44,400 nt of DNA from an uncultured Candidatus Saccharibacteria bacterium (GCA_964534415.1 CAZHOL010000001.1:1-44400); one strand, 5' to 3'; shown: positions 13,605 through 20,851, numbered from the stretch's first letter. The notes: generated by a model from the sequence alone, not told the origin. A program made the numbers and translations.

Positions 13605-15065
13605 ATGACTTCATTACAGGACCTACAACAGGTTCGCTTGGAAAAGCTTAAAAAATTACAAGACGCGGGAAGAAATCCATTCACGGCAAGAACAAAAAGA
13701 GATACTTCTGTCGCTGATGTGCTGAAAAATTTCGATTCAATTTCAGCAGAACAAAAATCAATCACTCTCGCAGGACGAGTGATGGTTATTCGTGGACAAG
13801 GAGCAATTTTGTTTATCGAAATTTTCGACGGTACAGGAAAAATTCAGCTAGTTTTGAAAAAGGACGAAATGCCTGAGGAGATTTTTAATTTGTTCGTCGA
13901 GACGATTGATATGGGAGACTTCATCGAGGCGACTGGTACTTTGTTTGTGACGCAGCGTGGTGCACAGAGTCTATTGATCAAAGAGTGGAATATTTTGACC
14001 AAGGCTATTTCACCGTTACCTGACAAATGGAGCGGTTTGACTGATGACGATGAGAGATATCGAAAACGATATTTGGATATTTTGATGAATCCTGAATTGC
14101 AGAAAATTTTTGAAATGAAATCTAAATTTTTCAATTCTGCACGGCAATTTATGTTGAACGAGGGTTTTCTTGAAATTGAAACTCCGACTCTAGAATCTAC
14201 AACCGGTGGGGCAGAGGCAAGACCTTTTGTCACACATCACAATGATTTTGATATTGATGTTTTCTTGCGAATTTCTGTGGGTGAGTTGTGGCAGAAGAGG
14301 GCTTTGGCAGCGGGCTTTCCTCGTGTTTTTGAAATTGGTCGGGTCTATCGAAACGAGGGTACTAGTCCGGAACATTTGCAGGAATTCACAAATATGGAAT
14401 TCTACGCTGCATACATGGACTATATCGAAGGTCGCGCTTTCATCGAGAGAATGATGAAGCATGTTGTTAGTGAAACTTTTGGTACTCTAAAATTTAATGT
14501 GAAGGGATTTGATATCGATTTGTCAGGTGAATGGCCGGTGATTGAATATGTTCCGTATGTTCTCGAAAAGACCGGAATTAATGTTTTGACTGCTACAGAA
14601 AAAGAAATGGAAGCCAAATTGCAAGAGTTGGGTGTTAAATATGAAGGGAACAATCGTGAGAGATTAACTGACACACTCTGGAAATATTGTCGCAAAACTA
14701 TTGCTGGTCCGGTTTGGTTAACAAAGCATCCAAAATTGGTTTCTCCACTCGCCAAGGCTTGTGAAGATAATCCAGAACTAACAGAGAGACTTCAATTAAT
14801 TTTGGCAGGAAGCGAGCTTTGTAATTCTTTCTCTGAATTGAATGATCCAATTGATCAGCGGGCTCGATTCGAAGGTCAGCAGAAATTAATCGACAGGGGA
14901 GACGATGAGGCAATGATGCCTGATTGGGAATTCGTGGAAATGTTGGAGCATGGAATGCCACCTGCTTTCGGTGCATCTACAGTTGGTGACAGATTTTTTG
15001 CGATGTTGTGCGGAAAACCGATTCGTGAGATTACCTTGTTTCCGTTGATGAGGCCAAAGAAGTAG
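13605..15065 (+). CDS. lysS: Lysyl-tRNA synthetase, class II
   Basis: N-terminal OB fold (ITLAGRVMVIRGQGAILFIEI), RYRKRYLDIL, VYRNEGTSPEHLQEFT, and a GMPP...G motif 3 region. Confidence 0.93.
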   Translation: MTSLQDLQQVRLEKLKKLQDAGRNPFTARTKRDTSVADVLKNFDSISAEQKSITLAGRVMVIRGQGAILFIEIFDGTGKIQLVLKKDEMPEEIFNLFVETIDMGDFIEATGTLFVTQRGAQSLLIKEWNILTKAISPLPDKWSGLTDDDERYRKRYLDILMNPELQKIFEMKSKFFNSARQFMLNEGFLEIETPTLESTTGGAEARPFVTHHNDFDIDVFLRISVGELWQKRALAAGFPRVFEIGRVYRNEGTSPEHLQEFTNMEFYAAYMDYIEGRAFIERMMKHVVSETFGTLKFNVKGFDIDLSGEWPVIEYVPYVLEKTGINVLTATEKEMEAKLQELGVKYEGNNRERLTDTLWKYCRKTIAGPVWLTKHPKLVSPLAKACEDNPELTERLQLILAGSELCNSFSELNDPIDQRARFEGQQKLIDRGDDEAMMPDWEFVEMLEHGMPPAFGASTVGDRFFAMLCGKPIREITLFPLMRPKK

Positions 15066-15078
15066 TACTTAGTCATAT

Positions 15079-15107
15079 TTGCATAATTTAATAAATTGTG
15101 GTATTGT
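15079..15107 (+). promoter_or_regulatory. Putative promoter TTGCAT-17-(TGg)TATTGT
   Basis: TTGCAT 15079-15084, TG 15099-15100, TATTGT 15102-15107. Confidence 0.45.
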
Positions 15108-15148
15108 GTTGTAAGCCAGTTCTAACCCCTAACCTATAGGAGGGCAAC

Positions 15149-15277
15149 ATGCCCTATCATAAATACGAGAAAACAAACCGCAGCACCCCGTTGCGGAAGA
15201 AATTCGAAGCACGACTTGGACTTGCCTGCGTTATCCTTGCAGGTGTCATTTGGGTCGTGAGGTTATGCTTTCGATGA
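15149..15277 (+). CDS. 42-aa tail-anchored small membrane peptide (below the ORF-track cutoff)
   Basis: AGGAGG 15138-15143 lies 5 nt before the ATG. My translation is MPYHKYEKTNRSTPLRKKFEARLGLACVILAGVIWVVRLCFR, with stop TGA at 15275-15277, followed at once by a 10-bp GC hairpin. Confidence 0.6.
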   Translation: MPYHKYEKTNRSTPLRKKFEARLGLACVILAGVIWVVRLCFR

Positions 15278-15280
15278 TTG

Positions 15281-15309
15281 GGCCGGCGCGAAATCGCGCC
15301 GGCCATTTT
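15281..15309 (+). terminator. Intrinsic terminator
   Basis: GGCCGGCGCG (15281-15290) AAAT CGCGCCGGCC (15295-15304) followed by ATTTT. Confidence 0.8.
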
Positions 15310-15311
15310 GC

Positions 15312-15339
15312 TTGCATAATTCTGCAGGTGAGGTATAAT
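15312..15339 (+). promoter_or_regulatory. Putative promoter TTGCAT-16-TATAAT driving the ncRNA candidate
   Basis: TTGCAT 15312-15317 and TATAAT 15334-15339. Confidence 0.6.
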
Positions 15340-15344
15340 AATAG

Positions 15345-15634
15345 TGTTCTTAGATTCATTTGAATCTTCGAACAGTAAGCTGACCGACAATGTCAGGGCG
15401 CTTAATGGGAATAGACGTATAGTCGGCTCTCAGTCGTGGTATTGATCAAGCGCCTTTGGCCACCCGACTTTAACAGTTCATTTTGTTCTTTCGAGCTTCG
15501 GCTCACATCTTCCATGTGGAAGACGCCATTCGTGGCAAAACTTCTTCCTTCGGGGAGATTTCATTCAGCGGGCACCTTCGGGCGCCTGTTTTCATTTTTA
15601 TCACAAAAACCCGCCTAAAAATGGCGGTTTTTTT
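15345..15634 (+). ncRNA. Candidate structured RNA of unknown family (about 250-290 nt)
   Basis: No credible ORF. It has many hand-foldable helices, four UUCG-capped hairpins in 15493-15588 and two terminator-like hairpins with U-runs (15571-15599, 15611-15634). It is flanked by its own promoter and the mraZ promoter. Confidence 0.55.
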
Positions 15635-15661
15635 GATGTGCAAAAATGTGCATAACTTTGT

Positions 15662-15724
15662 TTGAAAGTGTGCAATTGTGGTGTAAAATGGTAGACAAGT
15701 GGGAAGGGGTGGGAATCTGGGAAA
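15662..15724 (+). promoter_or_regulatory. Putative dcw promoter TTGAAA-16-TAAAAT followed by three TGGGAA direct repeats (MraZ-box-like operator)
   Basis: TTGAAA 15662-15667 and TAAAAT 15684-15689. TGGGAA starts at 15700, 15710 and 15718 (GTGGGAAGGG GTGGGAATC TGGGAAA). This resembles the TGGGN repeats with roughly 10-bp periodicity bound by E. coli MraZ. Confidence 0.55.
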
Positions 15725-15739
15725 TTCCAAATAAATACA

Positions 15740-16174
15740 ATGTTAATCGGAGAATTTAAACACACAGTTGATGACAAAAAAAGAATTTCTTTGCCGATTA
15801 AATTTCGAAAAGAAATTGGTAAAAATATTATTGTCACAAAGGGTCTTGATAACTGTTTGTTTCTTTATCCGCTCAAGGAGTGGAAAAATATTTCCGAGAA
15901 ACTTGGTTCGTTAGGAATGGGACAATCCGACACTCGTGGCTTCAACAGATTCATGTTGGCCGGAGCTTCAGAAATCAGTGTTGACTCAGTCGGAAGAATC
16001 CTGATACCAGATCACCTTAAATCTTTTGCAGGAATAGAAAATAAAGTTGTCTTTGCCGGAGTTCACAACAGAGTAGAAATTTGGGACGACGCTCGATGGG
16101 AAACATACAAGACAAGTGTTCTCAAAGATGCAGACAAGATGGCAGAAAAATTGGGAGAGATTGGTGCAATTTAA
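15740..16174 (+). CDS. mraZ: Transcriptional regulator MraZ
   Basis: Duplicated DxxxR motifs (DDKKRISLP, DSVGRILIP); first gene of the dcw cluster. Confidence 0.93.
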   Translation: MLIGEFKHTVDDKKRISLPIKFRKEIGKNIIVTKGLDNCLFLYPLKEWKNISEKLGSLGMGQSDTRGFNRFMLAGASEISVDSVGRILIPDHLKSFAGIENKVVFAGVHNRVEIWDDARWETYKTSVLKDADKMAEKLGEIGAI

Positions 16175-20776: not shown

Positions 20777-20851
20777 GGCCCTATCGTCTAACGGCTAGGA
20801 CAGTGCCTTCTCAAGGCATAAATCGGGGTTCGATTCCCCGTAGGGTCACCA
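20777..20851 (+). tRNA. tRNA-Glu, anticodon CUC, CCA encoded
   Basis: Cloverleaf folded by hand: acceptor GGCCCTA/TAGGGTC, D stem GTCT/GGAC, anticodon stem GTGCC/GGCAT with loop TTCTCAA, T arm CGGGG-TTCGATT-CCCCG, discriminator A, then CCA. An extended -10 TGtGATAAT lies at 20757-20765. Confidence 0.9.

Follow-up and report, generated by a model that had tools for sequence, protein, structure and literature searches.

Which kind of gene, if any, lies in the non-coding region that separates a small ORF (15149-15277) from mraZ (15740-16174) in the 44.4-kb stretch of DNA analysed here, which we refer to as a whole as the window? An initial annotation had read the region as a structured RNA outside any known family, transcribed from its own promoter and selected for its fold, and every element that it listed is present where it was placed. 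We find that the RNA observation is confirmed as real, and that the core reading of a selected fold, an own promoter and no known family is supported. We propose, with a probability of roughly 0.6, that 15312-15599 is a self-contained gene for a structured non-coding RNA of ~250 nt, which would be a lineage-specific stand-alone sRNA acting in trans. The MraZ homologues are labelled Candidatus Paceibacteria or Paceibacterota, and the organism is therefore placed in the CPR/Patescibacteria, bacteria that have tiny genomes and depend on a host; the locus occurs in sequencing runs from freshwater and wastewater metagenomes.

Using MraZ as an anchor, we recovered homologues of the RNA gene in six distinct versions (Table 1). 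The genomes that carry it have MraZ proteins that are 99-100% identical, and the DNA of their lysS and dcw genes is ~75-83% identical. All six occupy the same position, with lysS and a variable small membrane ORF ahead of them and mraZ behind. Between the window and its relatives, the sequences can be aligned from the promoter as far as the U-tract that follows the final hairpin and no farther, and the flanking non-coding DNA and the small-ORF region, unlike the RNA gene, do not align between relatives. The limits of conservation are thus the promoter and the terminator, and the RNA gene is a conserved island bounded by both. A stand-alone sRNA is expected to have its own promoter and its own intrinsic terminator and to be conserved as a unit, and this is what the six homologues establish.

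The promoter TTGCAT-16-TATAAT, which the initial annotation had assigned to the RNA, is the only such site in the 44.4-kb window (0.04 expected by chance), and both hexamers are unchanged in 6/6 homologues. It was not picked up in a generic promoter scan because TTGCAT agrees with TTGACA at three of six positions. The 10-mer TTGCATAATT occurs at 15079-15088 and 15312-15321 (repeat D4), where it forms the -35 region of the small-ORF promoter and of the RNA promoter; TTGCAT may be the preferred -35 hexamer of the lineage, or the site of a shared regulator.

Table 1. Features of the RNA gene (window positions) and its six homologues
Feature	Position	Strand	Make-up	Remarks
Promoter	15312..15339	+	-35-like TTGCAT 15312-15317, 16-nt spacer, -10 TATAAT 15334-15339	direct reading of the sequence
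Inferred RNA, ~250 nt	15344..15599	+	start 5-8 nt after the -10 hexamer; end at the U-tract after P8	putative ends
P1, 5'-terminal hairpin	15346..15373	+	GUUC/GAAC and AGAUUC/GAAUCU	identical in sequence in five species that are ~80% identical overall
P2 hairpin	15374..15402	+	15380-15384 / 15392-15396 and 3-bp extension 15374-15376 / 15400-15402	loop CGACAA invariant
Conserved linker	15403..15413	+	UAAUGGGAAUA	apparently single-stranded; UGGGA invariant
Ha, 3-bp mini-hairpin	15414..15424	+	GAC-GUAUA-GUC	100% of cells pair
Hb, first stem of the favoured pseudoknot	15425..15454	+	GGCUCU 15425-15430 with AGCGCC 15449-15454	89% of cells pair
Hc, second stem of the favoured pseudoknot	15432..15469	+	AGUCG-U-GG 15432-15439 with CC-CGACU 15463-15469	97% of cells pair; crosses Hb
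U/C-rich conserved linker	15482..15492	+	UUUGUUCUUUC	one substitution in six homologues
Variable hairpin set	15493..15536	+	P4 15493-15504, P5 15508-15523, P6 15525-15536	
P7 hairpin	15543..15558	+	UCUUCC-UUCG-GGGAGA	sequence and loop nearly invariant in 6/6 homologues
P8, predicted intrinsic terminator of the RNA	15567..15599	+	G+C-rich hairpin and U-tract	stem, then UUUUCAUUUUU
Second terminator, bidirectional	15600..15637	.	ATCACAAAAACC / GGTTTTTTTGAT arms around CCGCC...GGCGG	inverted repeat I3
Homologue 1	window copy			identical in L104-L106
Homologue 2	L095:994-1252			
Homologue 3	L001:1689-1950			identical in L100-L103
Homologue 4	L109:1217-1478			
Homologue 5	L090:9585-9848			identical in L091-L093
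Homologue 6	L094:1076-1308			

Our structure model consists of ten helices and was tested on the alignment of the six sequences, in which standard pairs occupy 97.2% of 362 cells. Covariation in relatives upstream of mraZ had been suggested in the initial annotation as a check, and we found eight pairs changed on both sides vs 3.3 +/- 1.3 expected from shuffles, with none of 500 shuffles reaching eight and 0-3 such changes in control registers slid by 1-3 columns. Coming from six related sequences, this covariation is good support for the model, not proof of it. The minimum free energy of 15340-15640 on the + strand is -96.9 kcal/mol vs -77.1 +/- 4.8 in dinucleotide shuffles (z = -4.2), and two homologues fold with z = -5.4 and -6.1. 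The - strand of the same stretch folds about equally well, so folding energy alone cannot tell the strand. The + strand is favoured by the orientation of the promoter and terminator and by 24 G·U cells, and 97.2% of cells pair if it is the RNA, as against 91.2% for the - strand. The claim of a selected RNA fold is thereby upheld, by the z of -4.2, by the compensatory changes and by the retention of promoter, helices and terminator in six homologues.

P2, Ha, Hc, P4, P6 and P8 are the best-supported helices; P1 and P7 carry little covariation information because they hardly vary. The hairpins 15346-15373 and 15380-15396 that had been paired by hand correspond to P1 and P2 and are supported by the comparison, and locus L094 retains P1 with different internal pairs. 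P2 has two pairs with both-sided changes and a third that occurs in three types (CG, UG, UA), so that CUGAC/GUCAG becomes CCGAU/GUCGG, CUAAC/GUUAG or CCGAU/AUCGG in relatives. The initial annotation had also proposed a 7-bp long-range helix, GGCGCTT 15397-15403 / AAGCGCC 15448-15454, which does exist in the sequence (inverted repeat I6) but pairs in only 71% of cells across the six homologues and has no covariation; the comparison does not support this helix. It is broken without compensation by 15397 G>C and 15400 G>A in a strain from RNA-seq run X21 that is 98.6% identical over 15311-15458, and the same two substitutions create or improve pairs in P2 and its extension.

The central domain leans towards an H-type pseudoknot, formed under our preferred model by Hb and Hc, with the 5' strand of Hc sitting in the Hb loop. 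Hc changes from AGUCG/CGACU in the window to AGUCC/GGACU in four relatives (G-C to C-G) and to GGUC/GACU in L094 (A-U to G·U). Hb is the weakest part of the model and leaves the central domain not settled: one of its pairs has changed on both sides (G-C vs A-U), the window copy has a U·C mismatch, and in L094 its 3' strand pairs instead with GCGUUUG farther upstream. Ha, whose GAC/GUC in the window is GGU/GCC or GGC/GCC in relatives, is a weak helix that competes with an extension of Hb. A nested rod would be an energetically good alternative for the central domain in four sequences, and we rejected it because neither the window nor L094 conserves its pairs. Two copies of AGTCG had been noticed earlier, each able to pair with CCACCCGACT at 15460-15469, and this had been taken to mean either a pseudoknot or two mutually exclusive folds. 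The second copy (15432-15436) is part of helix Hc and the first (15421-15426) is specific to the window, which is why exclusive folds are not supported and the change of AGUCG/CGACU in four relatives tips the choice towards the pseudoknot. Pairing between the UUUGUUCUUUC linker and the P2 loop (GACAA/UUGUU) is possible; both segments are invariant and hence give no covariation signal.

If the 5' half of the RNA is a conserved core, the 3' half is a modular set of hairpins. The five hairpins described at ~15493-15588, four of them with UUCG loops, are present (15493-15586). Counting both strands, CTTCGG occurs 10 times in the 44.4-kb window, and three of these sites fall within 15496-15581 (86 nt). 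As a trait, however, the richness in UUCG did not survive comparison, with only the loops of P7 (15549-15552) and P8 (15577-15580) being conserved. The stems of P4 and P6 are kept via both-sided changes while their loops differ in most relatives, UUCG giving way to AUUC, AUUA, AUUU, UUUAU or GUA, and in L094 a single unrelated hairpin, GAGG-UUUAU-CCUC, takes the place of P5 and P6. The P8 stem is preserved with different sequences in L090 and L109. Two successive terminators had been described, and both are found (~15567-15599 and 15600-15637), but we assign only P8 to the RNA and consider the second to be part of the flanking framework. This second terminator stands between the RNA gene and the mraZ promoter; L090 and L109 have a terminator hairpin of different sequence at the equivalent position, and L108, which is without the RNA gene, has a framework terminator hairpin directly after the terminator of the small ORF.

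The RNA belongs to no curated family of Rfam 15 and is in this sense unclassified. An Rfam scan had been named as a further check on the absence of a known family, and at the gathering threshold it returned for the whole window only a tRNA-Glu(CUC) at 20777-20851. Permissive scans (E up to 10) of the window copy (covering 15050-15760), L094 and L001 gave no credible match, only matches to the terminator parts of unrelated sRNA models, at 10-25 bits vs thresholds of 37-191. RNase P, tmRNA, SRP, 6S, the mraW motif and riboswitches are therefore ruled out as curated families, and HEARO/omega RNA was likewise among the families tested without a match. TRF found no tandem repeats in the RNA, which rules out a tandem-repeat RNA, and a repeat search found no repeat families. 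An inverted-repeat search found no terminal inverted repeats of the element, and a covariance model of the 5' domain, run on the 44-kb window, 20 kb of L090 and 88 other loci, detected no further copy; within these sequences, a repeated element of the MITE, REP or BOX type is improbable.

How far the RNA extends beyond these six versions was asked at the same locus and in wider collections. L108 is 91.6% identical to L001 over lysS and the small ORF and 98.9% over mraZ, and it has neither the RNA gene nor a 176-aa ORF that follows it in L001; in L108 2300-2400, deletion or insertion boundaries lie in T-rich tracts adjoining terminators. In relatives whose MraZ is 80-84% identical, the spacer is too short or holds unrelated DNA, and the locus has no RNA. 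One of them (L111 460-640, - strand, 84% identical MraZ) has in its place an apparent small ORF, possibly with paired cysteine motifs (zinc-ribbon-like) as judged by eye. In 80 GTDB Paceibacteria genomes, neither blastn nor the 5'-domain covariance model (R1) found anything in the 3 kb that flank mraZ on each side. A metagenome scan with the pattern GACTTTAAN{3,25}TTTGTTCTTTCGAG, which is probably too strict, gave four chance matches, two pattern scans of viral contigs gave chance matches only, and phage and plasmid collections gave no match. As far as these tools reach, and within the loci searched, the RNA would be confined to one Paceibacteria clade, whose genomes match the window in ~80% of their DNA positions. 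The gene appears to be dispensable and not housekeeping, because L108 lacks it and sister genera lack the RNA at this locus.

The surroundings of the gene carry several features of their own. The small ORF upstream encodes 42 aa (MPYHKYEK...), a small membrane peptide with one hydrophobic helix and a good Shine-Dalgarno sequence, and is followed at 15281-15304 by a strong terminator with a 10-bp GC hairpin. Its versions differ widely, from about 44 aa in L090 and L109 to 101 aa in L001 and L108; all begin with MPY or MPH, and none has a Pfam match. On the other side, between the RNA terminator and mraZ, three relatives have an orphan ORF of 175-176 aa (L001 2056-2586, L094 1412-1939, L095 1357-1887), for which a search of 5.8 billion proteins returned no cluster but its own, and which gave no match in Pfam, PADLOC or NCBIfam. 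To all appearances, the spacer between lysS and mraZ is a hotspot for small genes that are lineage-specific.

In the window, the mraZ -10 hexamer TAAAAT (15684-15689) is closely followed by the direct repeats GTGGG, GTGGG and CTGGG with 10-nt spacing (15696-15730). By blastn, this stretch is conserved in many other Paceibacteria loci (query positions 401-438), and the repeats look like a putative MraZ operator. Farther upstream, TGTGCATAA (15647-15655) matches the relaxed DnaA-box consensus TGTGNATAA. A perfect DnaA box, TGTGGATAA, is found at the equivalent place upstream of the mraZ promoter in L001 (2908-2916), L090 (9909-9917) and L108 (2407-2415), and L081 and L111 carry GTGGATAAC; from these candidate boxes, there could be a DnaA input on the dcw operon. 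In L001, a 100-N gap in the GTDB contig has a duplicated mraZ promoter segment on both sides (2734-2800 and 2901-2970), which looks like a scaffolding artefact and not biology.

Public RNA-seq data touch the gene without defining its ends. Contigs (Logan) from five runs overlap parts of it, at depths of 2-14. In run X21, nothing in 19.9 kb of the window has a real match except 15179-15458, which two 151-nt contigs cover, and an L001-like variant of the RNA is covered by contigs of depth 9-14 in runs X23 and X25. The contigs include the promoter or pass both terminators into the mraZ promoter, and they may derive from DNA or from read-through transcripts. As for partners, complementarity of the RNA to the rest of the 44-kb window is at chance level, with 27 matches of at least 10 nt vs ~21 expected and a longest match of 12 nt.

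Could the element be something other than a trans-acting RNA? In the window, the RNA is followed by two terminators and then by the promoter and operator of mraZ itself, and to judge from this arrangement the RNA is not a leader of mraZ. It might still be a cis-acting, riboswitch-like leader or attenuator of the orphan 176-aa ORF, left as a relic in the window, L090 and L109 after loss of the ORF. Such a reading would account for the order of promoter, structured RNA, terminator and 175-176-aa ORF in 3/6 lineages and for the joint lack of RNA and ORF in L108, and the conserved pseudoknot core upstream of a terminator does resemble an aptamer with its expression platform. We nevertheless regard it as unlikely, given a conserved promoter-like site, TTGACT-17-TAGTCT, between the RNA terminator and the ORF, four hairpins that separate the core from the terminator, the lack of an evident antiterminator alternative to P8 and the lack of a match to any riboswitch family in Rfam. 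Moreover, the three lineages without the ORF (window, L090, L109) have kept the promoter and, through compensatory changes, the structure, and P2 covaries among them; the RNA is therefore not simply the leader of the ORF. Function might instead reside in the DNA, with the 28-bp palindrome of P1 (+1 to +28) serving as an operator and the hairpins as terminators that insulate the dcw operon from the lysS side, and with no functional RNA at all. P1 is a near-perfect inverted repeat that is identical in the five species, three terminator-like hairpins occur in 100 nt, and RNA-seq contigs cross the terminator of the small ORF, all of which would suit this reading. A strong conserved promoter right upstream makes little sense for a pure insulator, however, and L108 manages without the element. 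G·U pairs, which are meaningless in duplex DNA, are kept on the + strand, and the helices that covary include P2, Ha, Hc, P4 and P6, none of which is a terminator, so that we consider a role for the DNA alone improbable.

The case for a housekeeping RNA (6S, SRP, RNase P or tmRNA), so diverged in CPR that Rfam models miss it, draws on the size and strong promoter, which fit an abundant RNA, and on the divergence of CPR genomes. It would have to be reconciled with the empty scans at E up to 10 for three homologues, with the lack of a 5'/3' closing stem, tRNA-like ends and an SRP domain IV motif, with the absence of the RNA from L108 and from this locus in sister genera, and with the loss of two hairpins in L094; we think it very improbable. 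A small protein is hardly credible. The window does contain 60-aa ORFs, including 15436-15618, stop codons are scarce on the + strand, and four relatives have an AUG at GGUAUGAUCAAG, which would begin MIKSFWPPDFN..., where the window has UUG or GUG. In L001, however, a stop follows two codons after the AUG, in L094 the AUG is missing, no Shine-Dalgarno sequence precedes the candidate AUG, and the open frames of the homologues differ, being offset from one another by indels of 1 and 2 nt. The substitutions are of the kind that preserves base pairs, and among the six homologues there is no conserved reading frame, start codon or ribosome-binding site, on which grounds we rejected a protein-coding ORF.

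For the stand-alone sRNA that we prefer, a working model can be sketched. Transcription would start from TTGCAT-16-TATAAT and stop at the RNA's own intrinsic terminator, P8. The product would have a 5' core consisting of P1, P2 with its CGACAA loop, the Hb/Hc pseudoknot and the single-stranded UGGGA and UUUGUUCUUUC, followed by a 3' tail of modular hairpins that vary in number, sequence and loops. The RNA would act in trans, and the loops and linkers of the core (P2 loop CGACAA, UGGGA, UUUGUUCUUUC) together with the pseudoknot may form the functional surface that contacts a partner, either an mRNA or a protein. P1, the cUUCGg-capped hairpins and P8 would mainly shield the RNA from nucleases. 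A bolder idea, which we hold to be a long shot, is that the 5' core (P1, P2 loop, Hb/Hc) represents a class of functional fold that is new and special to CPR episymbionts. The core might bind a ligand or a protein or act as a small ribozyme, and the cassette carrying it, itself dispensable, would come and go between close strains, possibly tied to host or phage interaction. If this were true, the RNA would be more than an ordinary base-pairing regulator.

A gene that is retained for its folded RNA and driven by a strong promoter of its own would mean that the reduced genomes of CPR bacteria, too, evolve and maintain lineage-specific non-coding RNAs. Non-coding RNAs of CPR are almost unexplored, and the gene is a concrete candidate that experiments could take up; for the present, its practical weight is lessened by its restriction to one clade, its apparent dispensability and a partner that is still hypothetical. 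Our literature search on regulatory and structured RNAs of CPR/Patescibacteria, which was limited, turned up nothing relevant except TIGR arrays, the Tas-associated guide RNA arrays of CPR bacteria and phages (PMC12045711). The RNA described here is not such an array, in that it has no periodic repeat and its neighbours in the window are lysS, the 42-aa ORF and mraZ, not Tas.

Comparison with other known systems helps to place the RNA. By position, it recalls the mraW RNA motif (RF01746), which is conserved in Actinobacteria ahead of genes of the dcw cluster: the RNA here, too, directly precedes a division and cell-wall cluster, mraZ-rsmH (mraW). It differs in being a separate unit, cut off by two terminators and the mraZ promoter/operator, in having no Rfam match and in being absent upstream of mraZ in 80 other Paceibacteria genomes. 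With pseudoknot riboswitches, it shares an H-type pseudoknot that has invariant loop nucleotides and lies 5' of an intrinsic terminator. It differs from them in having no family match, four hairpins between core and terminator and no alternative antiterminator pairing that we could see, and in 3/6 lineages the RNA is followed by the next terminator and promoter with no gene in between. A type III toxin-antitoxin system (ToxI-ToxN) would likewise present a promoter, a structured RNA, a terminator and, as in three relatives, an ORF of ~175 aa, but here the RNA lacks tandem repeats, the ORF lacks a ToxN match and has a promoter-like site, and the window lacks the ORF altogether. An antitoxin RNA of type III was rejected on these grounds, namely the lack of tandem direct repeats and of any ToxN or PADLOC match for the neighbouring ORF of the relatives. 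Like 6S RNA, the RNA is an apparently single-copy, promoter-driven non-coding RNA of ~200 nt; unlike 6S RNA, it has no long closing helix with a central bubble and no Rfam match, and it is missing from a close relative.

The closest likeness is to lineage-specific stand-alone sRNAs with an intrinsic terminator, a general class that includes, for example, the Hfq-independent sRNAs of Firmicutes; we know of no RNA chaperone in these CPR bacteria. The features in common are a sigma-70-type promoter, a length of ~250 nt, a 5' hairpin, a Rho-independent terminator, unrelated neighbours, a narrow range and apparent dispensability. The conserved pseudoknotted core, which is unusual for base-pairing sRNAs, and the lack of a match to any Rfam sRNA family set the RNA apart from known members of this class, and we conclude that it is genuine, new as a family and ordinary in kind.
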